From Fibrobacterota bacterium (GTDB taxonomy: Bacteria > Fibrobacterota > Fibrobacteria > UBA11236), in the NCBI GenBank assembly GCA_028287465.1, contig JAQBPO010000067.1, positions 5,353 through 69,352 on the forward strand: a stretch of 64,000 nt of DNA. The letters are read 5' to 3'. Made by a program: the position numbers and the translations under genes. Positions 2,033 through 17,751 of this stretch are shown here, one piece after another. Each line of letters starts with the position of its first letter. Positions within the stretch are counted from its first letter, which is position 1. The notes below the pieces were generated by a model that was given only the letters and a program-made list of their open reading frames with translations, was not told where the DNA came from and ran no database searches.

Positions 2033-2148
2033 CGTGGATCACAGGGTCAAATCGGCCCCGATTCACTACTTAGATTTTGGGAATCGGATGGGCGCCTTGT
2101 TGGACCTCGCCTATCTTCAGGCCTCCCCTAATCTTTATGGAGGTCTAA

Positions 2149-2736
2149 ATGGAATACAACATCACCCGATTGGCCGTCTGCCTTGTCATGACCGGTTTCG
2201 CGATGGCGCATGCGGGATTGAATGCGACGAATGGGTTGAATTCAATGAACGGTTTGAGCGGGGCCAATGGCTTGAACGCGATGAATGGCTTGAACGCGAT
2301 GAATGGCTTGAACTCACAGAATGGTTTGAACACCGCCAATGGGTTGAATGCAACGAATGGATTGAATGCGCAAAACGGTTTGGGCTCGGTCAATGGGTTG
2401 AACGCCATGAACGGTTTGAACGCAGGGAATGGTTTGAGCGCAACGAACGGATTGGGTAGTGCCAATGGGCTTAACGGGGCCAATGGCTTGAATGGAGCTA
2501 ATGGCTTGAATGGAGCTAATGGTTTTAATGGGTCCAATGGTTTGTCAGGCGTCAATGGCTTACAGGCAGCGAATGGCTTCAACACCGCCAATGGCCTTTC
2601 CGCCTCGAACGGAACGGCGGCGGCCTCGGTGGCTCCGGCGGCATTTGTCGCGCCGAAAAGCGTTCCCGGCGTCACGGTCAACCCCAAGAATACCGTGATC
2701 CACCTAGTTGGGATAGTCCTGGCTAACGGAAAGTAG
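2149..2736 (+). CDS. Secreted low-complexity protein made of 22 tandem GLNxxN hexapeptide repeats
   Basis: GGAGG RBS. Signal peptide MEYNITRLAVCLVMTGFAMAHA, then GLNATN GLNSMN GLSGAN GLNAMN ... for 22 units, then a short hydrophobic C-terminal tail. The opposite-strand ORF 2145..2687 (KPLAPF repeats) is the mirror artefact. Confidence 0.7.
   Translation: MEYNITRLAVCLVMTGFAMAHAGLNATNGLNSMNGLSGANGLNAMNGLNAMNGLNSQNGLNTANGLNATNGLNAQNGLGSVNGLNAMNGLNAGNGLSATNGLGSANGLNGANGLNGANGLNGANGFNGSNGLSGVNGLQAANGFNTANGLSASNGTAAASVAPAAFVAPKSVPGVTVNPKNTVIHLVGIVLANGK
2215..2610. repeat. 18-bp tandem repeat, about 22 copies, with consensus near aatggcttgaacgcgatg; codes for the GLNxxN units
   Basis: Direct reading of the sequence. 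The period of 18 nt is a multiple of 3, so copy-number change would keep the reading frame. Confidence 0.85.
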
Positions 2737-2816: not shown

Positions 2817-3284
2817 TCAGTCCGTTAGGCCGAACTCCCGCATCGCGGGAGGGAAGTTCCGGTTCTCATGCCCGGGGCGGCTGAGCTTGACCAAAGCGAA
2901 GCGTTGCAACGGATGCAAGGACGCCCAAGCCGCCAAGGGAAGTTCCATTCCCAGGGCATGGGCTTGTTCCAGTACTTGTTCGGGCACCAGATCGGCATTC
3001 TCCCAGACGGTTTCCGGCAGCTCAGGCAGCATGGAGGGCCGCGCTCCGGAGGATTCCTCCGCCATCCGGGATACCGCTTCGCGATAGGCTTCGATTTCCG
3101 TTTCCGTCCCGCACGGCTTCGAGGCCAGTTCCAGCCTCTGGTCCCGGGACAGCTTGGACCATTCGTTCAGCTTGAGCTTCACGCCTGTAATGTCCAGACG
3201 CATGCGGACCGCCATGGGGATGCAGCGCAGGCTGTCCACGAAATCCGCTTCGAATCCGAAGAATTCCGATCCGGGGTCCTGCAT
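2817..3284 (-). CDS. Nitrate reductase-associated protein (small conserved partner found in NasA clusters)
   Basis: 155 aa. Its start ATG overlaps the nasA stop (CTGATGCAG). Contains the conserved segment DITGVKLKLNEWSKLSRDQRLELASKPCGTETE. Confidence 0.6.
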   Translation of the reverse strand: MQDPGSEFFGFEADFVDSLRCIPMAVRMRLDITGVKLKLNEWSKLSRDQRLELASKPCGTETEIEAYREAVSRMAEESSGARPSMLPELPETVWENADLVPEQVLEQAHALGMELPLAAWASLHPLQRFALVKLSRPGHENRNFPPAMREFGLTD

Positions 3285-5521
3285 CAGGAGGGATCCTTTT
3301 CCACCCTGACCGCGCAATGCTTGTAGGAAGGCTGGCGCGAGTGGGGATCGAAGGAGGGGAAGGTCAGCCGGTTGACCTCGACGTCGTGCATGGGCATGAA
3401 CAATTGCCCGGGCTGGACGGTGGAAGCCACGGAGGCGCGGGCTCGGGCCTGGCCGCGGCGGGACCGGACCAGGACCCAGTCCCCGGAAGCGATCTTGAGC
3501 CGGGAGGCGTCCTCGGGGTGGATCTCCACCAGGGAATCGGCGGGATAGAGCTTGCGGAGCACGGCGGATTTCCCGGTGCGGGTATTGGTGTGCCATTGGG
3601 CCGAGGAACCGCGGCCGGTCAGGAGGGCGAAGGGAAACTCGGAGGTTACGGGCTCGGGGATGGGCTGCGGCGGGCTGAACTTGAATTTCGCCTTGCCGTC
3701 CGGATGGTAATACCGGCCATCCTCGAATAGGCGCCGTTCCCGGACGATGGGCCGGGCCGGGGTTCCGGCGCCGGGTCCTTCCGGATCCGGGGAGGCGGGA
3801 AGGGGCCATTGGATGCCCCCTTCCCGATCGATCATGCGGTAGTCCGTGATGCCGGTGAAATCGCAGGGGCGGCCCGCCGATAGCCTGGCCATCATCCGGA
3901 AGGCCTGTTCCGGCGTATCCATGTCCTTGAAGAGGGATTCGCATCCCCAGTATTTGGCGATGAGCTTGAAGATGTAGAAGTCCGCCAGGGCCTGGCCGGG
4001 GGCGGGATGGACCTTTTTGAACAGGCCCATGCGCCGTTCGGAGTTGATGACCACGCCTTCCTTCTCCCCCCAGGCGGCCGAGGGCAGGACCAGATGGGCG
4101 AGCTTGGCCGTGTCGGTATCGTGGTACATGTCCTGGACCACCAGGAATTCCAGCTTGGCCGCCGCGCGCCGGAAGTCCTCCTGATCGACCCAGGAGTGCG
4201 CGGGATTCGTCGCGATGACCCAGAGCGCCTTGATGCGGCCCGCGTTCACGCCTTCGATGATCTGATCATAGGCCAGGCCCGGCTTGTCCTGGATGATGCC
4301 GGCGTCGATGCCGAGGATTCCGGCCACCTCTTCGCGGTGCTTCGGATCCTTGAACTCGCGGCCGCCCGGGAGACCGGTGGTATTGCTGAAGAGGCGGGAT
4401 CCCATGGCATTGACCTGGCCGGTGATCGAGTTCGCGCCCGTGCCCGGCTTGCCCATATTCCCCGTCATCAGGGCCAGGTTGATGATGGCCTGGGCCGTGC
4501 GCACGCCCTCGTGGCTCTGGTTCACGCCCATGGTCCACCACAAGGATACGCGTTTGCCCGGGCGCAGGGACTCCGCGAACTCCATCATGCGGGCCTCGCC
4601 CAGGCCGGTAATCCTCCCTACCGCGGCCGGATCGAAGGTCTTCACGTGTTCGCGGAACTCCTCGAACCCGGTGGTATGGGCCTCCAGATAGTCCCGGTCG
4701 ATCCAGCCCTCGCGGATGAGGATGTGGGCGAGGCCGTAAAGCAGGGTGAGATCGGATTTGGGCTGCAGGGGATAATGGCGGGTGGCGGCCAAGGCGGTTT
4801 CCGTCTGGCGCGGATCCACCACGATGATTTCCGGGTTGCGCTTATTCATCATCACGCGTTCCCACATGATGGGATGGGCGATGCAGGGGTTCGCGCCGAA
4901 GAAGACGATCACGTCCGACTCTTCGAAATCCTTGTACGAAAACGGAGGCGCATCGAATCCGAAGGATTGCTTATAGGCGACGTGCGATGTGGCCATGCAT
5001 TGGCGCGTATTGGCGTCCCCGTGCACCAGCCCCATGCCGAACTTGGCCAGGAGGCCGAGCGCGAACATCTCTTCCGTGGGGATCTGCCCCGTACTCAGGA
5101 AGGCGGCGGCTTCCTTGCCATGGAAGGCGAGGACGGATTTGAACTTGTCGGTGAAGACGCGGAGGGCCTGATCCCAGTCGACGGGAGCGAGAGCGCCGTC
5201 CGGGCCGCGCAATAGGGGAAGGGCGGCGCGGTCATCGGCCTTCAGGGGGGTCAATGCCTCCCAACCCTTGGGGCAGGCCATCCCCAGGTTGACGGGGTAC
5301 TCCGGATCGGGCGTGAGGTTCACGGCCTTTCCGTCCTTCAGGTGGATCTTGAGCCCGCATCCCGTGGAGCAGAATCCGCAGACCATGGAAGTGGTGGAAT
5401 CGGGTTGCAGGCGTTCAGGGGTCTTGCCCAGGCCGAACCGGCCCGGGGACAGGACCATCTCATGGGTCAGCTTGCCGGTGCGTTGCCGCATGAATCCGGC
5501 GAATCTGTCTTTCAAATCCAT
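3284..5521 (-). CDS. nasA: Assimilatory nitrate reductase catalytic subunit (molybdopterin oxidoreductase, NasA/NarB type); cytoplasmic, with no twin-arginine motif
   Basis: N-terminal 4Fe-4S motif [13 protein letters not shown]-binding regions are conserved along the full length. 745 aa. Confidence 0.9.
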
Positions 5522-5607
5522 GGATGAACGTCCCCTCGATGACCGCAGTATACTTTTTTCGCGGCATGCCTGCTACCGGCCGCTCGGACGCATTCCGGCC
5601 TAGGTGG

Positions 5608-7350
5608 TCAAGCGCCCGGCATCCTCGGCGGCACGCAGGCGGAAAAGAACAGGTAGCGTTCCAGGCATTCGCCTGCGAGAAGCAAGGCCAGGACGGAGAC
5701 GGAAAGCAAGGCATCGGCAGGGCCCGTCCCCGCGAAACCCCGATAAAGCCAGAGGATGGGAAGCAGGAAGCCTCCTGCCAGACCGGCATTGAAGCGCCAG
5801 GCATGCGTGGAACGCAATTCCCCGCGGAGCAGCAGGGCCGCTTTCTTGAGCGGGTTGGCCTCCTGGTCGTCCAGGTGGCGGTGGATGCGCGCTTCGCAAG
5901 CGAGTTTGGCGATCAAGGCCAGCGGCAGTGCCATGGTAAGGCCGAGCGCGAGATGCGGGATCGATTCTCCCGTGATTCCGGAGCAGGAGATGAGGGCCAG
6001 CAGGCCGGCGGCGCCGGTGAGGGCGGCGGTGAGGAAGAACTTCCCGGAAGTGAGGCGCGTCGCCCAAAGCGCGCGGGGCGTGTCCCGGTAGACCATGGCG
6101 GAACAATGCACGGCGAGTGCCGCCGATACCGCTAGAGCGATGCGGACCCAACCCGCGGATGCGTATCGGCCCAGGTCCGCAATCCAGGAGGAGGGCCCGG
6201 CTTCGAGGCCGAAGAGCGGAAGCGGAACGCCCGTCGCGGCACGCGATGCGATCAGGGCCGTCAAGGCGGTTCCCGCGGCGGCGGCCATGGCGAGGCCGCC
6301 GAGAAGCCCGAAGGCGACGATTTCGCGGCTGAGCCAGGAACGGCGGAACCCGAGTACGGCGCGGAAGGCATACAGGGGGCGGCCGAGATGGGTGATGCTG
6401 ACGGCGATGGCGACGGACATCAGTAAGGCGCCCAGGGCATGGGCCCATGCCTGGAAGAAAGGTTCGGCGGGGAGCAGGCCCGAAAGCGAGCCGGCCTCCA
6501 GGGCGATGAAGAACCCGGCGGCCATCTGGGACAGGGTCAGCATGAACACCAGGGGGAAATGCGCCTTTTCCTTCTTCAACCTGTATGCATCGGCCGCTTC
6601 CATGCCGGCGGGGAACTTGCGCGCGGTGCGGTAGCGGGTGGTGGGCTTGGTGTACGCGGGATCGGGCGCGCCGGGCAAGGCCGCGTAGTCGGCGAAATTC
6701 GCGCGGACTTCGGCTTGATCCACGAGGGAGATGCGGATGGCCTTGGTGGGGCAGGCCTGCACGCAGGCGGGGGCCTCGCCAGACTCCAGGCGGCCGATGC
6801 ACATGTCGCATTTGCGCACGATGCCTTTGCCCTTGTGGTATTGCGGTACGTCGTACGGGCATTTCAGGATGCAGTATTCGCAGCCGATGCACTGGTCGTC
6901 CAGGTGCCTGACGATGCCGGTGACCGGATCCTTTTCGTAGGCTTTGACCGGGCAGCCGTGGGAGCAGGCGGGCTCCAGGCAATGCTGGCAGGCGGTGGTG
7001 ACGGTCTGCTGCAGGGGCTTGCCGATCACGTTGTGGATGAGCCCGACCGAGCGCCAGGTTTCATCCTCGTCCAGCCCGTTGAGATTGTGGCAGGCGGTGA
7101 CGCAGGCCTTGCAACCCGTGCAGCGATCCAGGTCGACTTCGAAGGCGTATTGCTGTCCGGGCCGCGGTTTTTCCAGGGGAAGGAGATCCCGGTAATGGCT
7201 TTCCAGGCGCGGCTTGGCCCCCAGGGCATGCATGTCGTCATGGAGCCCGGAAAACCGCTCCACGGCGGTCAGGTTCTGCTGCTCCTCGAGATAGGCGCCG
7301 ATCAAGGCGGGCCCGTCCCCGAGGAACTTGGAAAGGGAGGGCTTGATCAT
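5608..7350 (-). CDS. Fusion of a 4Fe-4S dicluster ferredoxin domain (DmsB/NrfC-like) with a DmsC/NrfD-like polytopic membrane anchor
   Basis: Start MIKPSL at 7350, overlapping the cysJ-like stop (TGATG). There are four Cys clusters (CTGCKACVTAC, CQHCLEPACSHGCP, CIGCEYCILKCP, CDMCIGR...CVQACP). The C-terminal 350 aa or so form many hydrophobic helices. Confidence 0.75.
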   Translation of the reverse strand: MIKPSLSKFLGDGPALIGAYLEEQQNLTAVERFSGLHDDMHALGAKPRLESHYRDLLPLEKPRPGQQYAFEVDLDRCTGCKACVTACHNLNGLDEDETWRSVGLIHNVIGKPLQQTVTTACQHCLEPACSHGCPVKAYEKDPVTGIVRHLDDQCIGCEYCILKCPYDVPQYHKGKGIVRKCDMCIGRLESGEAPACVQACPTKAIRISLVDQAEVRANFADYAALPGAPDPAYTKPTTRYRTARKFPAGMEAADAYRLKKEKAHFPLVFMLTLSQMAAGFFIALEAGSLSGLLPAEPFFQAWAHALGALLMSVAIAVSITHLGRPLYAFRAVLGFRRSWLSREIVAFGLLGGLAMAAAAGTALTALIASRAATGVPLPLFGLEAGPSSWIADLGRYASAGWVRIALAVSAALAVHCSAMVYRDTPRALWATRLTSGKFFLTAALTGAAGLLALISCSGITGESIPHLALGLTMALPLALIAKLACEARIHRHLDDQEANPLKKAALLLRGELRSTHAWRFNAGLAGGFLLPILWLYRGFAGTGPADALLSVSVLALLLAGECLERYLFFSACVPPRMPGA

Positions 7351-9206
7351 CAGTACACGTCCCGCTGGTAGCGCTTCTGTTCCTTCATGCGATCCAGGTA
7401 GGCGCGGGCCTCTTCGGGGCCCTTGCCGCCTTCCTTGGCGATTACCCGCTGCAGGGCCTCGTCCACGTCCTTGGCCATGCGCTTGGCGTCGCCGCAGACG
7501 TAGAAATGGGCTCCTTCTTCCAGCCATGCATAGAGCTCCTTGGAGCGTTCCGCCATGCGGGTCTGGACATAGACCTTCTCCTCCTGGTCCCGCGAAAAGG
7601 CGAGGTCCATGCGGGTGAGGAATCCGGAGGCCTGCATGGCCACGAACTCTTCGCTATAGAGGAAGTCGTACCGGCGGCGCTGATCGCCGAAGAAAAGCCA
7701 ATTCTTGCCCGTATCACCCAGGTGACGGCGCTCCTGGAGGAAGGCGCGGAAGGGGGCGATGCCGGTTCCGGGGCCGACCATGATGATGGGCGTCCCCGCC
7801 ACGGAGGGCGGGGCGAAATGGGCGGCCGGCTGCACGAAGACGGGAACGGTCATGCCCAGGGGGACGCGTTCGGCAAGGAAGGTCGAAGCCACGCCGCGGC
7901 GGAGGCGTCCGCCCGCGCTGTAGCGGACCACGCCCACGGTGAGATGCACCTCGCCCGGATTCTCCTTGGGCGAGCTGGAAATGGAATACAGGCGCGGGGC
8001 GAGCTTGCCCAGGGTGCCGGTCAGTTCCTTGGCGTCCAGGCGGGTGTGCGGGAAATCCTCCAGAACGTCGAGCAGGTCGTTGTCCGCGAGGTAGATCCGC
8101 ATCCTTTCGCCATCGTTGAGGAGTTCGTAAAGGCGCCTCTTCTCGGACTGGTTGCGGCAGACTTCAAGGAGGCACTTCAGCAGCCGGTCGGAACCGCGGC
8201 GCAAGTCCAGCTTGGAGATGAGAGCGGTGCGGAGGGCGATTTCCCCGTCGCCGTCCACGACGATCTTCTCGTTGCCCAGGCAGTTGAGGGAAAGGATGAT
8301 GCGGTCGACCAGATCGTAGCAGTTGCGGGGAACGATGCCCAAGGCGTCGCCAACGCGGTATTCGAGACCGCTCCCCAGCAGGGAGATGGCGATATGGCGC
8401 GTGTCCTTGGCGGACCCTTTGGCGTTCAAGGGATGGTTCTCCAGCAAGGAGGCCTGGAACGGGTTCTTGCGGTTGTAGACGGCGGCGGGCTTGGCCGAAG
8501 CGGAGCCTTCGGGCATGGCGGCATTGCCGGCCTGGGTGCCGGTCGCGTTGGAACCGGCGGCCGTAATGGCGGGCGCACTCGAGATGAAGGCGTCGACCGC
8601 CCCGAGGGCCTCGTTCATCCAGGCTTCGGTGCGGGCTTCATAGTCGGTGTCGCATTCGCAGAGCGGAAGGAGGCGTTTCGCCCCCAGTCCGGCGAAGCGG
8701 GAATCGAGGTTCTTGCCGGCTTGGCAGAAGCGGGTGTAATTGCGATCGCCCAGGCCCAATACCGCGAAGCTCAGATGGGGCATGGCCGGCGCTTCCGGAG
8801 CCTTAAGCCAATCCCAGAAGGCGACGGCGTTATCAGGCATGTCTCCATCGCCCCAGGTGCTGGTAAGCATGAGGATATGATTGACCGATGCCCACTCGAC
8901 TTCCTTGAACTTTTCCATGCCGAGGACGCTCGGCGCGACCCGGGCCCCGCCTGCGAAGGAATGGGCCTTCAGTTTGTCGGCCAGGGATTGCGCCAGGCCT
9001 TCGACCGTCCCCGATTGGGAACCATAAAGGACCAGCACGGGCATGGCGGGCAAAGCCGGAGCCCGGGCGATCGGAGCGGCGGCGCGCGACCCGGAGGCGG
9101 ACGCGAAGGTTGTATTGGACAATCCGGCCAGGAAGCCGTTCAGCCACATCCGTTGATCGACGCTGAAGGGCGCGGATTCGGGAAGGAAGGGCGCGTTCTG
9201 GCTCAT
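7350..9206 (-). CDS. NADPH-dependent flavoprotein reductase of the sulfite reductase alpha (CysJ) / cytochrome P450 reductase type, with flavodoxin and FAD/NADP domains; probable electron donor for NirA/NasA
   Basis: Start MSQNAPF at 9206, overlapping the nirA stop as ATGA. Flavodoxin region VLVLYGSQSGTVEGLA. The FAD/NADPH region includes RLYSISSS, GPGTGIAPFRAF and a YVCGDAKRMAKDV tail. Confidence 0.8.
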   Translation of the reverse strand: MSQNAPFLPESAPFSVDQRMWLNGFLAGLSNTTFASASGSRAAAPIARAPALPAMPVLVLYGSQSGTVEGLAQSLADKLKAHSFAGGARVAPSVLGMEKFKEVEWASVNHILMLTSTWGDGDMPDNAVAFWDWLKAPEAPAMPHLSFAVLGLGDRNYTRFCQAGKNLDSRFAGLGAKRLLPLCECDTDYEARTEAWMNEALGAVDAFISSAPAITAAGSNATGTQAGNAAMPEGSASAKPAAVYNRKNPFQASLLENHPLNAKGSAKDTRHIAISLLGSGLEYRVGDALGIVPRNCYDLVDRIILSLNCLGNEKIVVDGDGEIALRTALISKLDLRRGSDRLLKCLLEVCRNQSEKRRLYELLNDGERMRIYLADNDLLDVLEDFPHTRLDAKELTGTLGKLAPRLYSISSSPKENPGEVHLTVGVVRYSAGGRLRRGVASTFLAERVPLGMTVPVFVQPAAHFAPPSVAGTPIIMVGPGTGIAPFRAFLQERRHLGDTGKNWLFFGDQRRRYDFLYSEEFVAMQASGFLTRMDLAFSRDQEEKVYVQTRMAERSKELYAWLEEGAHFYVCGDAKRMAKDVDEALQRVIAKEGGKGPEEARAYLDRMKEQKRYQRDVY

Positions 9207-11113
9207 AGGGTCTCCGCTGCCGCAAAGGGGGCCGTTGTCGCGTTCGCCGGAAGGGCGGCCGCGGATTGTGATACGGGAACATCGGCGGCGGCCCCGTCCC
9301 AGGCGAAGATCGCCTGCAGGTCCGCGTCCGGCAGGCGCGCGGTGAATTGCGTGAAGGATTCGGCGTCCGTGCGTTTGGCCAGATAGATGCGGAGGATGCG
9401 TTCGACTTCCGCCGGGACTTCCGGGGCGGGGACCGAGCGCCGGGCCGGGACCGCCATGCGGCCTTCTCGGCCATAACCGCCGCCGATGAAGAAATGGAAT
9501 CCCGCTCCCTTGTAGGACGCGTTCTCCACGCCGGCGCCCAGGAGGCCGATATCGCCGATGAAATGCTGGGCGCAGGAGTGGGTGCAACCCGTGAGATGGA
9601 TATTGACCGGGCTGTCCAGGCGGATGCGGCCGCGAAGGTGGGTGGTGATGGCCGTCGCGGTGGACTTGGTGGGGGCCATGCCGAACTTGCAGCCTTCCGC
9701 GCCGGTGCAGGCCACAAGTCCCGCCTGGATGGCGTCTGGCTCGTGGGTCAGGCCCAACCGGCCCAAGGCGGCCAAGGCCCCGTCCAAGCGCGATTCGGGG
9801 ATGTCCGAGATGAGCAGGTTCTGCCATACGGTGAGCCGCAGGGTCCCGGAACCGAAGGCGGCCGAAAGGTCGGCGAGGCCGCGAAGCTGTTCCACGGTGA
9901 GCCTTCCGACCGGAACGTCGACGCCGAGGTAGCAAAGGCCGTCCTGGCGTTGCGTATGGATGCCGAGATGGCCGGCCTTATCCACCGCGGGCGCGAGGCG
10001 GCACTCCGTTTCGGGCAGGCGGCGCAGGGCGAAGGGAAGCCGCTTCTGGGTCTGTTCCAGGAATTCCGGGACGCCGAAGGCCTCCAGGACGTATTTGAGC
10101 CTGGCGCGCTTGCGGTTGCCGCGATCGCCGTTCATGACATAGACGCGGATCATGGCCGCGATTACGGGAATGCATTCCGACGGCTTGAGCAGCAGGCCCG
10201 TGTCCTTGGCGAGATCGCCGTGCCCGGTGATGCCGCCGAGGGCGAGGCGGAAATAGATCCCTTCCTCGACTCCGTGGCCGGCGTCCACCTTCACCGCCCT
10301 GAGGCCGATATCATTGGTGTCTTCCAGGGAGGAGATGGAGTTCCCGCCGTCGAAGGCGACGTTGAATTTGCGGGGCAGGCCGTACAAGGTCCTGTCGTGC
10401 ATGATATGGTGGTGCAGCTCGCGGCACAAGGGTAGCACGTCGTAGAACTCATGGGCGTCGATGCCGCAGGTGGGATTGCCGGTGACGTTGCGGATATTGT
10501 CCGCACCGGATCCCCTCGGTACGATGCCGGCTTCATGGAGGTCGGCGAGGAGCGGCGCCATATGGGCCCCGCCGATTTCCCGGATCTGCAGGTTCGCGCG
10601 GGTGGTCAGGTCCACGTAGCCGCCGCCGTGGGTTTCCGCGGCGGCGGCGATGGCCCGGGCCTGATAGGCGCGCAGGATGCCGCCCGGGATGCGCAGGCGG
10701 CACATCATGGACTCCTGGGCGGGGGAGACGTTCCACAGGCCGTGGGTCTTGAAACGGAAGATGTCCTCGCCGACCGGGAGCCTGCCTTGGGCGGACAGCT
10801 CGGCGATGCGCGGCCAGGCGTCCAAGGGGTCGGAGTCGAACTTGATCTGCTCTTCCTTGGAAAGCCGTTTGCCGGACGCGAGCCAGGCGAGCTGCGCCCG
10901 CTTGCCGGGGGGCAGGGACGCTTCGGCTTCCGCGGATCCGGCGGAAGCGGCAGGGGATGCGTCCGCGGGTGCGGCCTGGTCGGGTTGACCGCTCAAGGCC
11001 CGCAGGAAACCATCGAGGTATTCCTTCTGCAGGTCGGTGAATGGGAGAGCTTCCGTAGGTATCAACTGTGTTTCCCCCGGCGGTTTCGAGTCGCCGGGCC
11101 GGTCTTGTGCCAT
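9203..11113 (-). CDS. nirA: Ferredoxin-nitrite/sulfite reductase family hemoprotein (siroheme/4Fe-4S; NirA-type assimilatory nitrite reductase) with an N-terminal extension
   Basis: Start MAQDRPG at 11113, with an AGGAGG RBS 8 nt upstream. Two NiR/SiR ferredoxin-like repeats. The siroheme-binding Cys cluster is CTGAEGCKF...CTHSCAQH. Confidence 0.85.
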   Translation of the reverse strand: MAQDRPGDSKPPGETQLIPTEALPFTDLQKEYLDGFLRALSGQPDQAAPADASPAASAGSAEAEASLPPGKRAQLAWLASGKRLSKEEQIKFDSDPLDAWPRIAELSAQGRLPVGEDIFRFKTHGLWNVSPAQESMMCRLRIPGGILRAYQARAIAAAAETHGGGYVDLTTRANLQIREIGGAHMAPLLADLHEAGIVPRGSGADNIRNVTGNPTCGIDAHEFYDVLPLCRELHHHIMHDRTLYGLPRKFNVAFDGGNSISSLEDTNDIGLRAVKVDAGHGVEEGIYFRLALGGITGHGDLAKDTGLLLKPSECIPVIAAMIRVYVMNGDRGNRKRARLKYVLEAFGVPEFLEQTQKRLPFALRRLPETECRLAPAVDKAGHLGIHTQRQDGLCYLGVDVPVGRLTVEQLRGLADLSAAFGSGTLRLTVWQNLLISDIPESRLDGALAALGRLGLTHEPDAIQAGLVACTGAEGCKFGMAPTKSTATAITTHLRGRIRLDSPVNIHLTGCTHSCAQHFIGDIGLLGAGVENASYKGAGFHFFIGGGYGREGRMAVPARRSVPAPEVPAEVERILRIYLAKRTDAESFTQFTARLPDADLQAIFAWDGAAADVPVSQSAAALPANATTAPFAAAETL

Positions 11114-11501
11114 AGCCCTTTCCTCCTGCTGCCAGGGGAGATCGCAATGGCCAAAGGTTCGGACGGACCGGAGACAGTTGGCGAATATGCCTTCGGTACA
11201 ACGCAAACGGCGTACCAGGATGGATTCGGGGCCTTCCGGCCGGATGCGCGGGAATAGGGCCGATTACGGCGGTCAAGCGATCGTCAATGTTTCCATTGGT
11301 CATCTTATGTCATTCCGCGGGATTACAATATGAGCCAACGTTGGCGTTCTTTACGGAGTTTTGACGGAATGGGGAGCGGTCGGAAACCCCCTACGATCCG
11401 GTGCCTCGTCGGGACCTTCTATAGAGGACGCCGGCTGAAGCGCGGATTTCCGCCGGGGGTTTGTCAAACGGAACCCCTCCTTGGCAGGAACTGTCCCCAA
11501 G

Positions 11502-11517
11502 TGGCGCGCGGTTTGCT
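11502..11517 (+). promoter_or_regulatory. Candidate sigma54 (-24/-12) promoter in front of narK: TGGCGC-N5-TTGCT
   Basis: Matches the TGGCAC-N5-TTGCW consensus and sits about 30 nt upstream of the narK ATG. The nirA-narK intergenic region is 434 bp and divergent. Confidence 0.35.
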
Positions 11518-11547
11518 TTCCCTCCAAGGCATCAGGGAGATTCCGCA

Positions 11548-12762
11548 ATGAAATTCAAAGACTTCGCCAAGGCCGGCCACGCGCCGACGCTTTTTTCCGC
11601 CTTCCTCTATTTCGACATGAGCTTCATGGTCTGGGTGTTGCTCGGACCCCTGGGCGTGCATATCGCCAAGGATCTCGGCCTGTCCCCTTCCCAAAAAGGC
11701 ATGATGGTCGCCGTACCGGTCCTGTCCGGCGCGATCATGCGCGTGTTCATGGGCCTGCTGGTCGACAGTATCGGCGCGAAAAGGGCCGGGCTGATCGGAC
11801 AGGCCATCGTGCTCACCGCGCTGATGGCGTCCTGGCAGTTCGGATTGCATAGCCTGCATGCGGTATACCTCCTGGGCATCTGTCTGGGCGTCGCGGGCGC
11901 CTCCTTCGCCGTCGCCCTGCCCCTGGCATCGCGCTGGTATCCGCCCGAAGCCCAGGGACTCGCCCTGGGGATCGCCGGCGCCGGCAATTCCGGCACCGTA
12001 TTCGCCGCCTTGTTCGCGCCCCTGCTGGCCAACCACTTCGGATGGACCAACGTTTTCGGCCTGGTCCTCATCCCGCTTTCCATGACCATGGTCATCTACG
12101 CCTTCCTTGCCAAGGATGCCCCGGGCAGGCCTCCGGCCCAGAAGCTCACCAAGTACTTCCATGTCCTCAAGGAGCGCGATGCCTGGTGGTTCATGCTTTT
12201 CTACCTGGTCACCTTCGGCGGCTTCGTGGGCCTGGCCTCCAGCCTCGTGATCTATTTCAACAGCCAATTCGGCCTGCCCCCTTCGGTCGCGGGCTACCTC
12301 ACCGCGGGCTGCGTCTTCTGCGGTTCCATGTTCCGGCCCATCGGCGGGTCGATCGCCGATCGCGTGGGCGGGGTCCGGGCCCTGCAGACCATGTATATCG
12401 TGGTCGTGCTCGCCATGCTCGGCGTGGCCTTGCTGCCCACCTCCCTGACGCTTTCCCTGACCTTCTTCGCCTTCGGGATGATGGCCATGGGCATGGGCAA
12501 CGGTGCGGTATTCCAGCTGCTGCCTCAGCGCTTCTCCCGCGAGATAGGCACGCTCACCGGTCTGGTGGGGATGGCAGGCGGCGTGGGCGGATTCTACCTG
12601 GCCTCTTCCTTGGGCCTTTCCAAACAGTTCAGCGGGGATTACCGGTTGGGATTCCTCATGTATGCGCTCATGGGAGCGTTCGCGTTCGGGATCCTGTTCA
12701 AGGTGAAGGTCCGCTGGCGCTCCACCTGGGGCGCGCCCGGCCTGGCCCGGGCGCGGGTTTGA
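11548..12762 (+). CDS. narK: MFS nitrate/nitrite transporter (NNP family, NarK/NasA-type)
   Basis: Start MKFKDF, with an AGGGAGA RBS. Twelve transmembrane helices. Gly-rich NNP signature GIAGAGNSGTVFAALFAP. Confidence 0.85.
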   Translation: MKFKDFAKAGHAPTLFSAFLYFDMSFMVWVLLGPLGVHIAKDLGLSPSQKGMMVAVPVLSGAIMRVFMGLLVDSIGAKRAGLIGQAIVLTALMASWQFGLHSLHAVYLLGICLGVAGASFAVALPLASRWYPPEAQGLALGIAGAGNSGTVFAALFAPLLANHFGWTNVFGLVLIPLSMTMVIYAFLAKDAPGRPPAQKLTKYFHVLKERDAWWFMLFYLVTFGGFVGLASSLVIYFNSQFGLPPSVAGYLTAGCVFCGSMFRPIGGSIADRVGGVRALQTMYIVVVLAMLGVALLPTSLTLSLTFFAFGMMAMGMGNGAVFQLLPQRFSREIGTLTGLVGMAGGVGGFYLASSLGLSKQFSGDYRLGFLMYALMGAFAFGILFKVKVRWRSTWGAPGLARARV

Positions 12763-12781: not shown

Positions 12782-13822
12782 GTGAGAATCGGCTTCGTGC
12801 CGTTGGTGGACTGCGCCCTGCTCGCCGTGGCGCAGGAGCTTGGGTTCTTCCGGCAACACGAGCTCGAGGTCGAATTGCGCAAGGCCCAATCCTGGGCCCA
12901 GGTCCGCGACAAGCTCATGGCGGGAGAGTGGGACGCGGCCCATAGCCTGATAACCATGCCGATCCAATCGGCCCTGGAGAATCCCCCCGGCGATCACCCC
13001 CTCAGCTACGCCTTCACCTTGAGCCGCAACGGCAACGGGATCATTTTTTCCAATTCCCTCTGGAATGACGGGGCCAGGGACCCGGTAGGCCTTTCCTCCT
13101 GGATGGCCCAACGGCCCGGCCGCGTTTTGAGGCTTGGCGTGGTCTTTCCCCGCGGCACCCAGGAATACTTCCTGCGGTCCTGGCTGGCCTCGGGCGGGCT
13201 TACCATTGGGGAGGGCATCGCCTTGACCATCATTCCTCCCCAGGAAATGGTGGGACGCCTCCGCAAAGGGGAGATCGACGGATTCTGCGCCGGAGAACCC
13301 TGGAGCCGGCGCGCTTCCGCCTCGAAGCTCGGCCGATTGGTGGCCGAGAGCGGCGGGATCCTTCCTGGACTCGGGGAAAAGGTCCTGGCCGTCCGCACCT
13401 CCTGGCATCGTGCCCATTCCCTGGCCCACTCCCGTCTGATACGCGCCCTTTCCCAGGCTTCGGCTTGGCTGTCCGATCCTTCGAACCTGGATGCTGCCGT
13501 GGAGATAATCGCCTCCAAGCGCTACGTCAATACGCCCAAATCCGTGGTCGAGGGCGCGCTCAGGGACGCCGCCGGGCGGGCATCGGTACCGGGCGATGCG
13601 AACGGGATCCGGTTCCGCGGCGGAAACGCCAACGCCCCGGCGCCGTCCCACGCGAAATGGTACATCGATCAGATGGCGCTCTGGGGGCACTCGGACGTTA
13701 CCCGCATAAAAACCCTCGATCTTGCTCCCGTCTGCCTCGATGCTTTTTACCATTCCGTGGCATCGGCGCTTCCCCAAAGCCCGCCAGCCCGCGTCCTTAC
13801 GAGCGCGGCGGCCGATATCTGA
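12782..13822 (+). CDS. Cytoplasmic NrtA-like nitrate/nitrite-binding protein with no signal peptide (NasS-like sensor?)
   Basis: GTG start. NrtA/SsuA-type periplasmic-binding fold (FVPLVDCALLAVAQELGFF, GFCAGEPW) but no export signal. Lies between narK and nrtA. Confidence 0.55.
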   Translation: MRIGFVPLVDCALLAVAQELGFFRQHELEVELRKAQSWAQVRDKLMAGEWDAAHSLITMPIQSALENPPGDHPLSYAFTLSRNGNGIIFSNSLWNDGARDPVGLSSWMAQRPGRVLRLGVVFPRGTQEYFLRSWLASGGLTIGEGIALTIIPPQEMVGRLRKGEIDGFCAGEPWSRRASASKLGRLVAESGGILPGLGEKVLAVRTSWHRAHSLAHSRLIRALSQASAWLSDPSNLDAAVEIIASKRYVNTPKSVVEGALRDAAGRASVPGDANGIRFRGGNANAPAPSHAKWYIDQMALWGHSDVTRIKTLDLAPVCLDAFYHSVASALPQSPPARVLTSAAADI

Positions 13823-14390
13823 CCCAATACCCGATCCTATCGCCGATACCGGGATCGCTTCCGCGCGCCATCCCGCCGCATCGCGCCGTCCGCGCGGTTG
13901 TCAGCATTTGTCGGGCAAATCCTAACAGTAGGTGCCATTCCCCGATCGGGCAGGGGGGAAACATTGACATTACCCCCGTAAATCGGGCCATGGGCGGGAA
14001 AGCGCGCTTGGTACAGGCTTTGCTTTTCAATACCGTGATAAGTCAAACGCCAACTGATCGTTGGCGGCGGTGGTCTGGACGGACCACGCCATCCGGGATA
14101 GCCGAAAGCGCCCGGATACGCCGCCAGCGATAAGCAGGACGAACGATCGTCCCGGCCACCGCGGAAAGCGGGGCCAGCTTACTCCGGTCCGCCCGGGCTT
14201 TTGGACATACGGACAACGGCCGGAATATCAGGCCGGAGGAGTATGCCCAATGTGGTCGGAATTCAGGATCGGAATCGGAAGCGCGACCAGCGGCGGAAAC
14301 CGCTCCCGCACTGGCCGCGCGAACGCTCCCCAGCGGACTCCCGAGGCCGCCCTTCCGTCCAACCGCGGAAAGGCATTCCCGGCCCAGGGA

Positions 14391-14452
14391 GGGGATGCTC
14401 CCCATCCCCATCTCCCGGTAGGACCATGCCCCGCATGCCCCCTCCTACCGGG
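14391..14452 (+). promoter_or_regulatory. Two consecutive stem-loops in the long (about 700 nt) leader before nrtA; candidate attenuator or antitermination target
   Basis: Hairpin 1 pairs GGGGATG with CATCCCC (14391-14409). Hairpin 2 has a perfect 10-bp inverted repeat, CCCGGTAGGA-N19-TCCTACCGGG (14414-14452), followed by a weak T tract. Confidence 0.3.
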
Positions 14453-14519
14453 GGACCGCACCCTTTCATCGCCCGCCGCGCCAGCGCCGGAATTCCCGAA
14501 ACACCTAAGGAGCTCGATC

Positions 14520-15875
14520 ATGCAGGTTGCCATTCTTGACCTATCCACCCCCACCGGCCCGTTCCGCCCGATCGATTCGATCGGAAGGCGTTCGAACCGC
14601 GTCGCGCGCATCCTGGGCGTCGCGGCCGCCTGCCTGGCGCTCGCCTTCGCCGCCGTGCCGGCCCATGCGGACGGGAAACCGGAAACGACCAAGGCCAAGC
14701 TCGGCTTCATCGCCCTCGCCGATATGGCTCCCCTGGCGGTGGCCAAGGAAAAGGGATTGTTCGCCAAGTACGGCGTGCCGGACGTCGAGGTGCTCAAGCA
14801 GGCTTCCTGGGGCGCAACCCGCGACAACCTGGAACTGGGTTCCGGGAACGGCGGCATCGACGGCGCGCATATCCTGACGCCCATGCCCTATGCCCTCACC
14901 TTGGGCCTCAACACCAAGGGCAACAAGCCGGCGCCCATGTACATCCTGATGCGCCTCAACTACAACAACCAGGCCATCTCCGTGGCCGAAAAGTACAAGG
15001 AATCCGGCATCAACCTGAACGCGTCCGGATTCAAGCCCTGGATCGAATCCGCCAAGAAGCGCAACGCCAAGCCGCTGACCTTCGCCATGACCTTCCCGAC
15101 CGGCACGCATAACCTGTGGATCCGCTATTGGCTCGCCTCCAGCGGCATCGATCCCGACCTCGACGTCGCCACCATCGTGATCCCGCCTCCCCAGATGGTC
15201 GCGAACATGCGCGTGGGCAATATGGACGCCTTCTGCGTCGCCGAGCCCTGGGGCCAGCAGCTCATCAACCAGCGCATCGGCTATACCGCCGCGATGACCC
15301 AGGAGATCTGGAACGACCATCCCGAAAAGGCCCTGGGTATGCGCAAGGATTGGGTGGACGCCCATCCAAACGCCACCAAGGCCATCATGAAGGCGGTCAT
15401 GGAAGCCCAGATGTGGTGCGACAAGCCGGAGAACCGGGACGAGATGGCGCGCATCCTCTCCACCAAGAATTGGATCAACGCCCCGTACGAGGACCTGATC
15501 CCCCGCATCAGCGGCAAGATCGATTACGGCGACGGCCGCCCCAAGAAGGAAGGGGTGTTCATGAAGTTCTTCAAGGACAACGCGTCCTTCCCCTACAAGA
15601 GCCATGACAAATGGTTCCTGGCGGAGATGCGCCGTTGGGGCTTCTTCCCGAACGGAGTCGAATACGACAAGATCGTGGATCAGGTCAACCGGGCGGACCT
15701 CTGGCGCGAATGCGCCAGGGAAATCAAGGTCACGGCCATCCCCGCCACCGATTCCCGCGGCATCGAGAAATTCTTCGACGGCGTGACCTTCGATCCGGCC
15801 GATCCGGAAGGGTACCTGGCCAAGCTGAAGATCAAGAACATCGACGGCAAGAAAGGCGCGGTGGCGCGGAAATGA
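14520..15875 (+). CDS. nrtA: Nitrate ABC transporter substrate-binding protein, secreted (signal RRSNRVARILGVAAACLALAFAAVPAHA)
   Basis: AAGGAG RBS. NrtA/CmpA fold; paralogous to the NasS-like gene at 12782 (shared FCVAEPW and similar motifs). Confidence 0.85.
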   Translation: MQVAILDLSTPTGPFRPIDSIGRRSNRVARILGVAAACLALAFAAVPAHADGKPETTKAKLGFIALADMAPLAVAKEKGLFAKYGVPDVEVLKQASWGATRDNLELGSGNGGIDGAHILTPMPYALTLGLNTKGNKPAPMYILMRLNYNNQAISVAEKYKESGINLNASGFKPWIESAKKRNAKPLTFAMTFPTGTHNLWIRYWLASSGIDPDLDVATIVIPPPQMVANMRVGNMDAFCVAEPWGQQLINQRIGYTAAMTQEIWNDHPEKALGMRKDWVDAHPNATKAIMKAVMEAQMWCDKPENRDEMARILSTKNWINAPYEDLIPRISGKIDYGDGRPKKEGVFMKFFKDNASFPYKSHDKWFLAEMRRWGFFPNGVEYDKIVDQVNRADLWRECAREIKVTAIPATDSRGIEKFFDGVTFDPADPEGYLAKLKIKNIDGKKGAVARK

Positions 15876-16807
15876 TCATGAACACGGAAAAACCGATCGG
15901 CCAGCAGCCGTTCAATGAACGCCCTAAGCCCATGGTTACCGGCCTCAAGGCGGTTCAAACCAAGGTGTCTTCGAAGGCGAAGCCCGCGGCCGGGCTCCCG
16001 CCCCCCAGCGAGGATCCCGAGCGTACGGCGCGCATGCGGGATCGCGCGCGCACCTTCATCATGCCCGTGGTCGCGCTCTTCTTCTTCGGGCTTTTCTGGG
16101 AAATCTATTCTTCCGGCGACGGGGTGGTGCTTCCCGGCCCCATCAAGACCATCACCCAGTCCTGGAACCTCATCGCCCATCCCTGGTTCGACAATGGGCC
16201 CAACGACAAGGGCCTGGGATGGCAGTTGCTGTTCTCCCTGCAACGCGTGGCCACGGGCTATTCCCTGGCCGCGGTGGTGGGCGTCCTCCTGGGCATCATC
16301 ATCGGCAAATCGGCCATGGCCTTCAAGGCCCTGGATCCGATTTTCCAGGTGCTCCGCACCATCCCGCCCCTGGCCTGGCTGCCCATCTCCCTGGCCACCT
16401 TCAACCAGGCCCAGCCTTCCGCCATCTTCGTCATCTTCGTCACCGCCATCTGGCCCATCATCATCAACACCTCGGTGGGCATCATGCGCATCCCCGCGGA
16501 CTACGAGAACGTGGCCAGGGTCTACCAGTTGACCGGAACCCGGTATTTCTTCAAGGTGATGCTTCCGTCGGCCGCGCCCTACATCTTCACGGGCCTGCGG
16601 ATCTCCATCGGCATGGCCTGGTTGGCGATCGTCGCCGCGGAAATGCTGACGGGCGGGGTGGGCATCGGGTTCTTCATCTGGGATTCCTGGAATTCCTCCC
16701 GCATGAGCGACATCATCGTATCCGTGTTCTACGTGGGCATGATCGGCCTGGCCCTGGATCGCATCGTGGCCAGAATCGCGTCCCTGTTCGGGACGAGGGG
16801 GGACTGA
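15872..16807 (+). CDS. nrtB: Nitrate ABC transporter permease
   Basis: The ATGA overlap couples its start to the nrtA stop. Six or more transmembrane helices. EAA-like loop present. Confidence 0.85.
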   Translation: MIMNTEKPIGQQPFNERPKPMVTGLKAVQTKVSSKAKPAAGLPPPSEDPERTARMRDRARTFIMPVVALFFFGLFWEIYSSGDGVVLPGPIKTITQSWNLIAHPWFDNGPNDKGLGWQLLFSLQRVATGYSLAAVVGVLLGIIIGKSAMAFKALDPIFQVLRTIPPLAWLPISLATFNQAQPSAIFVIFVTAIWPIIINTSVGIMRIPADYENVARVYQLTGTRYFFKVMLPSAAPYIFTGLRISIGMAWLAIVAAEMLTGGVGIGFFIWDSWNSSRMSDIIVSVFYVGMIGLALDRIVARIASLFGTRGD

Positions 16808-17632
16808 ATGACCGACGCAATCAGGGATCAAATCGCGGAGAACGAAGCCAGATTCGTGGACATCTCCGGGGTGCACAAGCTCTTCGGTTCGGGTAAATCC
16901 CGCTACCATGCGCTGGCGGGCGTCGACCTGCGCATCGCCAAAGGCGAGTTCGTGAGCATCATCGGCCATTCGGGATGCGGCAAGTCCACCTTGCTCAATC
17001 TGGTAGCGGGGCTCTACCAGGCCACCACGGGTTCGGTCGCCGTGAACGGCAAGGAAGTGACGGCGCCGGGCCTGGACCGGGCGGTGGTTTTCCAGAGCCA
17101 TTCCCTGCTGCCATGGCTCACCGTGCTCGAGAACGTGATGGTGGCGGTGGACAGCGTGCATCCGGGAAAGGGCAGGCAATTCCGCCTCGACGAGGCCCGC
17201 AAGTACGTGGACATGGTCCATCTCGCCCAACATGCGGGCAAAAAGCCGCCGCAACTTTCGGGCGGCATGAAACAGCGCGTGGGCATCGCGCGCGCTTTCG
17301 CCGCCGATCCCCAGGTTCTCCTGCTGGACGAACCGTTCGGCGCCCTGGACGCGCTCACCCGCGGCAGCATGCAGGACGAGCTCACCACCATCTGGGAGAA
17401 GAACCGGAAGACGGTCATGATGATCACCCATGACGTGGATGAGGCTGTCTTCCTTTCCGATCGCATCGTGTTGATGTCGAACGGCCCCGCGGCCGTCATC
17501 GCCAAGGTCGTGGACGTGCCCATCGCGCGCCCCCGGACCCGGGAGGCGCTCCTCGAGGATTCCCAATACCTGGAAATCCGCAAGGAGCTTCTGCATTACT
17601 TGATTGGTACCGGCATGCACGCCGCGGCCTAG
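16808..17632 (+). CDS. Nitrate ABC transporter ATP-binding protein (NrtD/NrtC-type, single ABC domain)
   Basis: Walker A GHSGCGKST, signature LSGGMKQRVGIARA, Walker B LLLDEPFGALD. Confidence 0.85.
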   Translation: MTDAIRDQIAENEARFVDISGVHKLFGSGKSRYHALAGVDLRIAKGEFVSIIGHSGCGKSTLLNLVAGLYQATTGSVAVNGKEVTAPGLDRAVVFQSHSLLPWLTVLENVMVAVDSVHPGKGRQFRLDEARKYVDMVHLAQHAGKKPPQLSGGMKQRVGIARAFAADPQVLLLDEPFGALDALTRGSMQDELTTIWEKNRKTVMMITHDVDEAVFLSDRIVLMSNGPAAVIAKVVDVPIARPRTREALLEDSQYLEIRKELLHYLIGTGMHAAA

Positions 17633-17751
17633 AGGACCCGTCACCATCCGTCCGGTCCGTCCGGACGGACAGCCTGAACATCGTCTCCGGAAGCGGCCCG
17701 GCCGCCACGGGGAGAGAATCGCGTATAAACCCGAACCTCCGAGGAGATTCC

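Follow-up and report, generated by a model that had tools for sequence, protein, structure and literature searches.

We examined a 64,000-nucleotide stretch of DNA from a Fibrobacterota bacterium (assembly GCA_028287465.1, contig JAQBPO010000067.1, positions 5,353 to 69,352 of the forward strand; hereafter the window), in which five genes of nitrate assimilation run in series on the minus strand between positions 11113 and 2817. In the order of transcription these are nirA, encoding a nitrite reductase; a cysJ-like gene, encoding a diflavin reductase; fus, encoding a four-cluster ferredoxin fused to a membrane anchor of the DmsC type; nasA, encoding the catalytic subunit of a nitrate reductase; and narM, encoding a nitrate reductase-associated protein (Table 1). 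An earlier reading of this DNA, made from the letters alone and referred to here as the sequence-only reading, had recognized the same five genes; all are confirmed at the positions it gave, and their Pfam and NCBIfam profiles agree. It also described each gene as overlapping the next, which holds for three of the four junctions: nirA and the cysJ-like gene share ATGA (a 4-bp overlap), and the cysJ-like/fus and nasA/narM junctions each share TGATG (a 1-bp overlap). The fourth junction, between fus and nasA, is instead an 86-bp gap. An AGGAGG ribosome-binding site stands ahead of the nirA ATG. The region, with a G+C content of about 64%, is a complete nitrate-assimilation island. Here, we describe how the fusion protein may link the nitrate reductase to the quinone pool and how the CysJ-like protein may supply the nitrite reductase with electrons.

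Table 1. Features of the nitrate-assimilation region, in window coordinates
Feature	Position	Strand	Description
nirA	9203..11113 (start 11113)	-	636 aa; siroheme/[4Fe-4S] nitrite reductase, 'NirA family'
NirA motif, P24-L40	10994..11044	-	PFTDLQKEYLDGFLRAL; followed by Ala/Ser/Pro-rich linker
cysJ-like	7350..9206	-	618 aa; NADPH diflavin reductase; N-terminal motif, flavodoxin (FMN), FAD and NAD(P)H domains
CysJ-like motif, P13-L29	9120..9170	-	PFSVDQRMWLNGFLAGL; kept in 14 CysJ-like partners of NirA
fus	5608..7350	-	580 aa; four-cluster ferredoxin/DmsC-type membrane anchor fusion; Pfam Fer4_11 + DmsC
fus N-terminal extension, residues 1-65	7156..7350	-	Family-specific, consensus LIxxLLxEQQxLTAVERFS...YRDLLPL; not a signal peptide
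fus iron-sulfur (FeS) domain, residues 67-237	6640..7152	-	16 Cys in four groups; sufficient for four [4Fe-4S] clusters
fus membrane domain, residues 264-569	5644..6561	-	Eight DmsC-type helices; putative quinol site S318, H321, E343 on cytoplasmic face
Spacer fus-nasA	5522..5607	-	86 bp; holds GAGGGGA ribosome-binding site of nasA
nasA	3284..5521	-	745 aa; molybdenum-bis(pyranopterin guanine dinucleotide) (Mo-bisPGD)/[4Fe-4S] nitrate reductase catalytic subunit; twin-arginine translocation (Tat) signal absent
NasA N-terminal extension, residues 1-46	5384..5521	-	Upstream of FS0 cysteine motif; ~40 conserved residues
narM	2817..3284	-	155 aa; nitrate reductase maturation/associated protein
Divergent intergenic region, nirA/MFS transporter gene	11114..11544		Presumed promoter region
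Major facilitator superfamily (MFS) transporter gene	11545..12762	+	Presumed nitrate/nitrite carrier, divergent from nirA; MFS_1, E = 1.7e-41
NasS-like NMT1_2 protein, nrtA, nrtB, nrtD, Alginate_exp-family porin	12782..19083	+	NrtABD, ATP-binding cassette (ABC) nitrate transporter; Pfam NMT1_2 twice, BPD_transp_1, ABC_tran, Alginate_exp

The two halves of the fusion protein have separate relatives. In the FeS domain, the sixteen cysteines (C77/80/83/87, C121/124/129/133, C154/157/160/164 and C181/184/196/200) are all invariant or at least 90% conserved in an alignment of 77 homologs, which are 48-80% identical to the window protein and on which every conservation figure for fus is based. This domain is 36% identical to Escherichia coli DmsB (E = 6e-35), and it scores 125 bits with the DmsB equivalog TIGR02951, under the cut-off of 214; by these scores it is a relative of DmsB and not DmsB itself. 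The membrane domain matches the DmsC profile PF04976 with 59.6 bits against a gathering score of 22.3, and in BLASTP residues 264-569 align end to end with residues 7-275 of E. coli DmsC at 27% identity. An AlphaFold2 model built from the 77-sequence alignment (mean predicted local distance difference test score, pLDDT, 86.7; predicted template modelling score, pTM, 0.85) has eight long helices, and eight hydrophobic helices also emerge as peaks of alignment-averaged hydropathy. Foldseek matches the FeS domain to FdnH, ArrB and PsrB, and the membrane domain to ActC (E = 2.4e-4) and PsrC (probability 1.00). The proposal that the hydrophobic half is a DmsC/NrfD homolog is thus confirmed by profile, end-to-end alignment and fold.

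The membrane domain retains the residues that would be expected of a quinol site. H321 and E343, surrounded by the invariant motifs HLGxP (HLGRP) and SWxSRE (SWLSRE), are themselves invariant in the homologs and align with H65 and E87 of DmsC, two residues reported from mutagenesis to be important for menaquinol binding (work of Rothery, Geijer and Weiner). A third residue, S318, is conserved in at least 90% of the homologs and may correspond to the serine in the second transmembrane helix (TM2) that is conserved in all quinone-reactive NrfD-like subunits (PMC8076601).

The orientation of the fusion protein appears to be the reverse of that in DmsABC. Lysine and arginine residues on the loops on the side of the FeS domain average 16.4, against 2.1 on the opposite side, and the bias has the same sign in 77 of 77 sequences; the charge bias of E. 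coli DmsC, judged by eye, is opposite. No Tat motif was found on fus in any of the 80 loci examined, and a Sec signal is likewise absent from fus and from NasA. Owing to this charge bias and the lack of Tat signals, the FeS domain is placed in the cytoplasm, and a periplasmic location was considered and rejected on the same two grounds, the missing signal peptide and the strong charge bias. The arrangement of DmsB and DmsC, with the termini and a Tat-exported FeS partner on the periplasmic (P) side, is not found in fus. The predicted topology of the fusion protein is eight helices by hydropathy, with the FeS domain on the cytoplasmic side by charge bias. Thus, fus is probably a DmsB-DmsC fusion inserted in an inverted orientation relative to DmsABC, with its clusters and its putative quinol site both cytoplasmic.

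The family-specific extension ahead of the FeS domain (conserved residues Q24, F33, Y53, P58, P62 and G65) has no counterpart in E. coli DmsB, of which residue 4 aligns to fus residue 67, and it has low pLDDT in the monomer model despite its conservation. The fus sequence has a match with 100% identity in the metagenome-assembled genome of a 'Fibrobacteres bacterium'. Source databases label the fusion 'formate dehydrogenase iron-sulfur subunit', 'DMSO reductase anchor subunit' or 'putative anaerobic reductase component', and full-length homologs (at least 80% coverage) numbered zero in a plasmid collection.

The partner encoded directly downstream belongs to the Nap/Nas branch of the molybdoenzymes. 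NasA carries the Pfam domains Molybdop_Fe4S4, Molybdopterin and Molydop_binding, and among solved structures it comes nearest to that of the monomeric NapA from Desulfovibrio desulfuricans (2jio, E = 8e-107). Its RQCMATS segment aligns to RLCMASA of NapA, so that the Cys-Met pair is kept; the cysteine of NapA RLCMAS is the molybdenum ligand. At this position formate dehydrogenases have SeCys/Cys-His. An identity as formate dehydrogenase was considered, since Fdh-alpha is the best NCBIfam match, and rejected: the score lies below the cut-off (484 vs 666), and the active site has the Cys-Met pair of Nap/Nas enzymes. NasA also stays under the cut-offs of the Nas equivalogs NF041323 (NasA_Halo, 456 vs 1000) and NF047855 (NasC, 393 vs 1100), and we therefore place it in a subfamily of its own. 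Its setting is assimilatory, with NirA, NarM, the MFS transporter and NrtABD as neighbours and no twin-arginine motif; the sequence-only reading was right that NasA has no Tat signal, which is absent from NasA and the fusion alike. Among the 79 NasAs linked to fus there are two dubious matches to the Tat motif. One of these, the NasA homolog of locus L073, starts with the twin-arginine-like MDNPSDGSRRRFLLRAK, which may be due to chance, a mis-called start or a remnant signal. NarM is supported over its full length by TIGR02664 (162 bits vs a cut-off of 110) and by PF09655 (184 bits).

NasA, like fus, has an N-terminal extension. Its motif LTxELLLxPGxFGLGxVP occurs in nearly all of the 46 listed fus-linked NasAs (loci L001-L047), from all phyla sampled. 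The NasA of Methylocystis, which is not linked to fus, lacks the extension and has a C-terminal BFD-like [2Fe-2S] domain; the window NasA shows the reverse. The extension occupies the place of the Tat signal in exported molybdoenzymes and could serve in docking to fus or in the binding of a maturation chaperone, the latter being the reported function of the remnant signal in NarG.

The association of the two genes was examined by a survey in which patterns derived from the homolog alignment were scanned on one genome per GTDB species. At least 583 relatives of fus were confirmed, and the best 80 of these were retrieved and examined. They come from Fibrobacterota, Verrucomicrobiota, Planctomycetota, Myxococcota, Vicinamibacterales and Omnitrophota, and nine are complete genomes of Sorangium, a cultured member of the Myxococcota. 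Wherever there is sequence beyond fus (79 of 79 loci), nasA lies immediately downstream on the same strand, at a median estimated spacing of 35 bp. The nitrite reductase beside this pair differs from locus to locus: nirB-nirD in 46, with nirB-nirD-fus-nasA as the commonest arrangement; nirA with a CysJ-type reductase in 13-14, where both the gene order and the side of fus-nasA vary; and a distant ferredoxin-type NirA-like gene in 4. Since the adjacent nitrite reductase varies, fus is the only constant partner of NasA. Locus L015 (5864-12911) of Sorangium cellulosum So0157-2 is an example of nirB-nirD-fus-nasA (46 such among loci L007-L079), and the NirA/CysJ pairing of the window is a minority form. 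Locus L021, titled 'uncultured Bifidobacterium sp.', has a fus-nasA-cysJ-nirA layout almost identical to that of the Pedosphaera locus L016, and its taxonomic label looks wrong.

All three of the related Fibrobacterota genomes recovered have nirA-cysJ-fus-nasA in the order of the window. A search with the membrane domain alone among 1.84 billion cluster representatives gave 779 at E <= 1e-10, and most of the full-length ones match the fusion in size (540-620 aa). We conclude that fus-nasA and nirA-cysJ are two separate modules, each standard in its own lineages. The description of the operon as atypical, given in the sequence-only reading, therefore needs to be divided. It stands in comparison with textbook Nas systems but not in comparison with relatives, since the same order recurs in three Fibrobacterota and fus-nasA is the rule in Planctomycetota, Verrucomicrobiota, Myxococcota, Vicinamibacterales and Omnitrophota; taken literally, the survey finds the arrangement to be the standard one for its clade.

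The second module consists of a nitrite reductase and a flavoprotein. NirA matches NF007126 ('NirA family protein') over residues 23-604 with 752.5 bits against a cut-off of 523, and carries the Pfam domains NIR_SIR and NIR_SIR_ferr twice each. The sulfite reductase equivalogs fall far short (CysI 146 vs 457, Sir 78 vs 731), and the best profiles are those of the NirA family and ferredoxin-nitrite reductase. The CobG cut-off is passed (353 vs 235), but this identity was rejected because the NirA-family score is double and the context is that of nitrate. In the CysJ-like protein, Flavodoxin_1, FAD_binding_1 and NAD_binding_1 are present; NF004859 ('sulfite reductase subunit alpha') scores 514 bits against a cut-off of 432, and the two CysJ equivalogs are not reached (TIGR01931, 599 vs 668; NF008197, 485 vs 838). 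Identity to E. coli CysJ is 40% over residues 18-618.

In every locus that has both, nirA and the gene for the CysJ-type reductase are adjacent, in either order. The pair also occurs, with its motif, in the Alphaproteobacteria Methylocystis and Sulfitobacter, where RefSeq lists 'NirA family protein' next to 'sulfite reductase subunit alpha' in the former and to 'flavodoxin domain-containing protein' in the latter. The suggestion of the sequence-only reading that a CysJ-type NADPH flavoprotein points to a sulfite-reductase-like nitrite reductase is supported in that the flavoprotein is a full-length, 40% identical homolog of CysJ and is always beside this NirA subfamily. In the reductase on a plasmid of Methylocystis sp. 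MJC1 (locus L082, 10620-12209), a four-Cys PF04060 'putative Fe-S cluster' domain replaces the flavodoxin domain, and the motif and the FAD/NAD (FNR) part are kept. This swap of flavodoxin for PF04060 fits a dedicated low-potential donor that carries electrons from NAD(P)H to NirA. Three further loci (L005, L006 and L060) have shorter reductase matches that cover the FAD/NAD part only and may share the PF04060 build of Methylocystis.

NirA and the CysJ-like protein carry a related N-terminal motif, which had been proposed as a docking element. The motif is genuine, and most orthologs of NirA and of the CysJ-like protein in other phyla have kept it. It takes the form PFxxxQ(K/R)xYLxG(F/Y)(F/L)xxL in most NirA orthologs that adjoin a CysJ-type reductase and PFxxxQRxWLNG(F/Y)(L/F)AGL in the reductase partners, with a low-complexity linker after it in both cases. 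In searches, a hidden Markov model of the CysJ-like motif, built with the window sequences excluded, ranks the NirA open reading frame second of 693 six-frame window fragments (E = 0.015), and NF004859 also matches NirA residues 15-66 (E = 0.006). The CysJ-like motif aligns to residues 31-44 of E. coli CysJ (QLAWVSGYFWGVLN), within the N-terminal 51 residues that alone cause octamerisation of CysJ, and the E. coli hemoprotein in turn binds CysJ through its own N-terminus (PMC11195156). A docking role is therefore plausible, as the motif maps onto the octamerisation region, and the motif would most likely tether NirA to the reductase oligomer.

Complexes, electron donors, direction of electron flow and energetics are what we infer from the directly established homology, residue conservation, predicted topology and synteny. 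Together they suggest that the operon encodes the whole route from nitrate to ammonium in the cytoplasm, as two separable redox modules, a quinol:nitrate oxidoreductase for assimilation and an NADPH nitrite reductase built like sulfite reductase, a reading to which we assign a probability of roughly 55%. fus would sit in the inner membrane, with its four-cluster domain and its quinol site both facing the cytoplasm. Nitrate supplied by the adjacent MFS and NrtABD transporters would be reduced by NasA, which would dock on the FeS domain, possibly via the N-terminal extensions of both proteins. Quinol, probably menaquinol, would be oxidised at S318/H321/E343, and its electrons would pass through the four [4Fe-4S] clusters of fus to the FS0 [4Fe-4S] cluster of NasA, Mo-bisPGD and nitrate. 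With midpoint potentials of ~-74 mV for menaquinone and ~+420 mV for nitrate/nitrite, this reaction is strongly favourable. Quinol oxidation would give off its protons on the same side as nitrate reduction takes them up, so the step from quinol to nitrate is probably electroneutral; electrons from NADH would first have crossed the energy-coupled NADH:quinone segment. NarM would probably aid the maturation of NasA, as reported for cyanobacterial NarB. Electrons for the second reduction would run from NADPH through FAD and FMN of the CysJ-like protein to the [4Fe-4S]-siroheme centre of NirA, where nitrite would be converted to ammonium. The sequence-only reading had proposed a NasA that is membrane-tethered or quinone-linked. 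On the conserved quinol-site residues, the strict fus-nasA synteny (79/79) and the cytoplasmic orientation, a NasA that is both quinone-linked and membrane-anchored is the best-supported reading.

Nevertheless, several points weigh against this scheme. The whole case, including the putative physical complex of NasA and fus, is built on sequence, predicted structure and gene order, and the putative quinol site is carried over from two or three residues of E. coli DmsC. For the nitrite reductase, the likeness of the NirA and CysJ motifs is marginally significant in unbiased searches (E = 0.006, 0.015), and an hhalign probability of 97.9% for the two motifs is discounted because it is inflated by the choice of segments with a shared regular expression. 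The NirA motif also differs from the CysJ motif at conserved positions, with Y for W and D/Q/E for N. The E. coli hemoprotein binds the FNR domain of CysJ and not the CysJ N-terminus (PMC11195156), so a tether to the oligomer is an extrapolation. A related enzyme, NirA of Pseudomonas aeruginosa (PA4130), has been reported to depend on ferredoxin and not on NADPH with free flavin (PMC8092218); since that paper mentions neither CysJ nor a flavoprotein partner, it says little on the NirA/CysJ-like pair. The P. aeruginosa gene has no CysJ partner. Finally, electrons could enter the FeS domain straight from the CysJ-like protein (from NirB in other genomes), which would leave the membrane domain as a mere anchor.

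The last point leads to the most serious alternative, which we nevertheless regard as unlikely: fus would be a membrane tether and internal wire, in which NAD(P)H electrons pass via the CysJ-like protein (or NirB/NirD) to the FeS domain and on to NasA, and a quinone-inert DmsC-like domain holds the reductase by the nitrate transporters. The translational coupling of the cysJ-like gene and fus by their TGATG overlap would suit such a wire, as would the NAD(P)H-linked nitrite reductase that lies nearby in every fus-nasA locus with enough sequence. There are also parallels, as the nitrite reductase flavoprotein of Paracoccus feeds the nitrate reductase through a small FeS protein. In B. japonicum, NasC is served by the flavoprotein Flp (PMC4724949). 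However, the adjacent reductase varies between NirBD, a CysJ-like protein and a ferredoxin-type NirA-like protein, so that no single soluble donor co-varies with fus; the invariance of H321, E343, HLGRP and SWLSRE in 77 homologs over several phyla is hard to square with a passive anchor; and eight conserved helices far exceed the needs of tethering.

Less probable still is a dissimilatory or energy-conserving role, in which fus-NasA would act as a redox-balancing electron sink or as an electrogenic analogue of NarGHI that sends quinol protons to the periplasm via proton channels in the DmsC-like domain. As in NarGHI, quinol would reduce nitrate at an active site in the cytoplasm, and the helices of fus contain invariant polar residues (K482, E561 and R565). 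Proton half-channels have been proposed in NrfD-like subunits, but they are poorly defined even in the DmsC/PsrC/SoeC branch (PMC8076601). Moreover, every locus examined is assimilatory (ammonium-forming NirA or NirBD, NrtABD, MFS, NarM), and no respiratory nitrite or NO reductases were seen beside fus-nasA. Neither of these two roles would rule out assimilation. That the NirA/CysJ-like pair is a sulfite or bifunctional sulfite/nitrite reductase lying by chance in a nitrate cluster is very improbable: the name of NF004859, the 40% identity of the flavoprotein to CysJ and the Mycobacterium tuberculosis 'NirA', which reportedly turned out to be a sulfite reductase, speak for it, but NirA fits its own family best and lies far under the CysI and Sir cut-offs, the pair has nasA and nitrate transporters as neighbours in Fibrobacterota, Verrucomicrobiota, Planctomycetota and Methylocystis, and the operons would otherwise be left without any nitrite reductase.

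The genes around the operon complete the picture of the island. The MFS transporter encoded divergently from nirA is 88% identical to its syntenic counterpart in the related locus L001, and Rfam finds no RNA families anywhere in the window, including the intergenic region between these two genes. The first NMT1_2 (NrtA-like) protein (12782-13822, +) resembles the cytoplasmic nitrate sensor NasS, and the start of its open reading frame is without an obvious signal peptide; no ANTAR (NasT) partner for it was noticed among the nearby open reading frames and Pfam matches examined. Directly after nrtABD lies an outer-membrane beta-barrel of the Alginate_exp family (17752-19083, +; E = 2.8e-23), which may be an outer-membrane channel for nitrate/nitrite uptake. 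Immediately beyond the downstream end of the operon, at 1205-2736 (+), are encoded an ADYC-domain protein (E = 5e-44) and a collagen-like-repeat protein, which seem to have no connection with nitrate assimilation; G+C content falls to 0.55, against about 0.64, in the 2-3 kb stretch with the collagen-like-repeat protein.

Comparison with known systems shows both the parts from which a quinol-dependent fus-NasA would be assembled and its distinguishing features. The sulfite:quinone oxidoreductase SoeABC, known from Allochromatium vinosum and Aquifex aeolicus, is close in orientation: among described molybdoenzyme complexes it alone is regarded as having an inverted heme-less anchor of the DmsC/NrfD type, so that its quinone site and its FeS and Mo subunits lie on the cytoplasmic (N) side (PMC8076601). 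SoeABC is thus a precedent for the inverted, cytoplasm-facing anchor proposed for fus, but it differs in three respects. It belongs to another catalytic branch and oxidises sulfite, passing electrons into the quinone pool, whereas the partner of fus is of the Nap/Nas type in 79/79 loci; it consists of three separate subunits and not of an FeS-anchor fusion; and it has no link to nitrogen assimilation. A putative SoeC from a plasmid of Azospirillum sp. TSH58 shares HLGRP…SWLSRE with fus and is 40% identical to it over TM2-TM4, compared with 27% for E. coli DmsC. The plasmid cluster in question (locus L087, 1957-6683) encodes a molybdopterin oxidoreductase, a 4Fe-4S protein and a DmsC-family anchor beside xsc (sulfoacetaldehyde acetyltransferase), and from this neighbourhood it is probably soeABC.

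The menaquinol:DMSO reductase of E. coli, DmsABC, has a 16-Cys FeS subunit and an anchor of eight transmembrane helices that are homologous to the two halves of fus, with H65 and E87 kept. However, DmsAB is exported by Tat and faces the periplasm, whereas fus carries no signal and has the reversed charge bias, and DmsABC has separate subunits, of which the catalytic one belongs to the type III S-/N-oxide reductases, and a respiratory role. With NarGHI the proposed enzyme would share the reaction from quinol to nitrate, a cytoplasmic active site and a four-cluster FeS subunit between membrane and molybdenum. In that enzyme, NarI is a diheme cytochrome b whose periplasmic quinol site renders catalysis electrogenic, and NarG belongs to the type II enzymes, with Asp as ligand. 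The match of fus to NarH is weak (TIGR01660, 43 bits vs 524), its anchor is of the DmsC type, and NasA is of the Nap/Nas type with a Cys ligand.

The classical Nas systems (NarB with ferredoxin, Klebsiella NasA-NasC, Bacillus NasBC, Paracoccus NasC-NasG-NasB and Bradyrhizobium NasC-Flp) have in common with the window the catalytic family, the cytoplasmic location, nitrate transporters and a siroheme nitrite reductase; NarM is present as in cyanobacteria. They differ in their donors, which are soluble (ferredoxin, flavodoxin or NAD(P)H flavoproteins), as opposed to the membrane-anchored fus proposed here. The NADPH sulfite reductase of E. coli (CysJ8-CysI4) likewise combines a diflavin reductase with a siroheme/[4Fe-4S] hemoprotein from adjacent genes and shares the oligomerisation segment; here, however, the hemoprotein is of the NirA family and carries the reductase's own N-terminal motif, which is not visible in CysI. 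Members of the Nas/Nap/Fdh clade have been described as never associated with canonical four-cluster or membrane-anchor subunits (Wells et al., 2020; PMC7331816), a generalisation that the fus-nasA pair contradicts. The catalogue of NrfD-like complexes by Calisto and Pereira (PMC8076601) lists no NasA-linked complex, and the words 'fused', 'fusion', 'assimilatory' and 'nitrate reductase' are absent from it; the planctomycete NrfD cluster of PMC10732223 is a different one, of the alternative complex III (ACIII) type. Neither a NasA linked to a DmsC-/NrfD-type subunit nor a NirA-CysJ enzyme was found in open-access papers and preprints, although an earlier description is possible.

The known three-part plan of molybdoenzymes, with a Mo subunit, a four-cluster protein and a heme-less anchor, is here inverted, fused and recruited to assimilatory nitrate reduction. 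All three parts are present, since nasA, with its FS0 domain Molybdop_Fe4S4, directly follows fus, which supplies the four-cluster and anchor parts; known architectures are thus extended and no new one is founded. We would give even odds that fus-NasA represents a fourth class of assimilatory nitrate reductase, hitherto unrecognised, cytoplasm-facing and quinol-dependent, in which a Nap/Nas subunit is joined to an inverted, fused DmsB-DmsC, and that it is the standard enzyme of Planctomycetota, many Verrucomicrobiota, Myxococcota such as Sorangium, Vicinamibacterales and Fibrobacterota.

The fus-nasA pair is found in at least 80 species-level genomes of six phyla, including cultured Sorangium. 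Recognition of the role of the fusion would correct the metagenomic labels 'formate dehydrogenase iron-sulfur subunit' and 'DMSO reductase anchor' and the scoring of nitrate assimilation, and the NirA/CysJ-type pair provides a simple setting in which to study the recruitment of a siroheme enzyme by a diflavin reductase. If the proposed function is true, fus-NasA would be the second inverted, cytoplasm-facing complex of the DmsC/NrfD type after SoeABC, and the respiratory quinone pool, not NAD(P)H or ferredoxin, would supply the electrons for nitrate assimilation in these abundant bacteria of soil and water. Assimilation fed by quinol would then be cheaper in energy, because electrons from NADH first pass the coupled NADH:quinone step, and it would be tied to the redox state of the respiratory chain.

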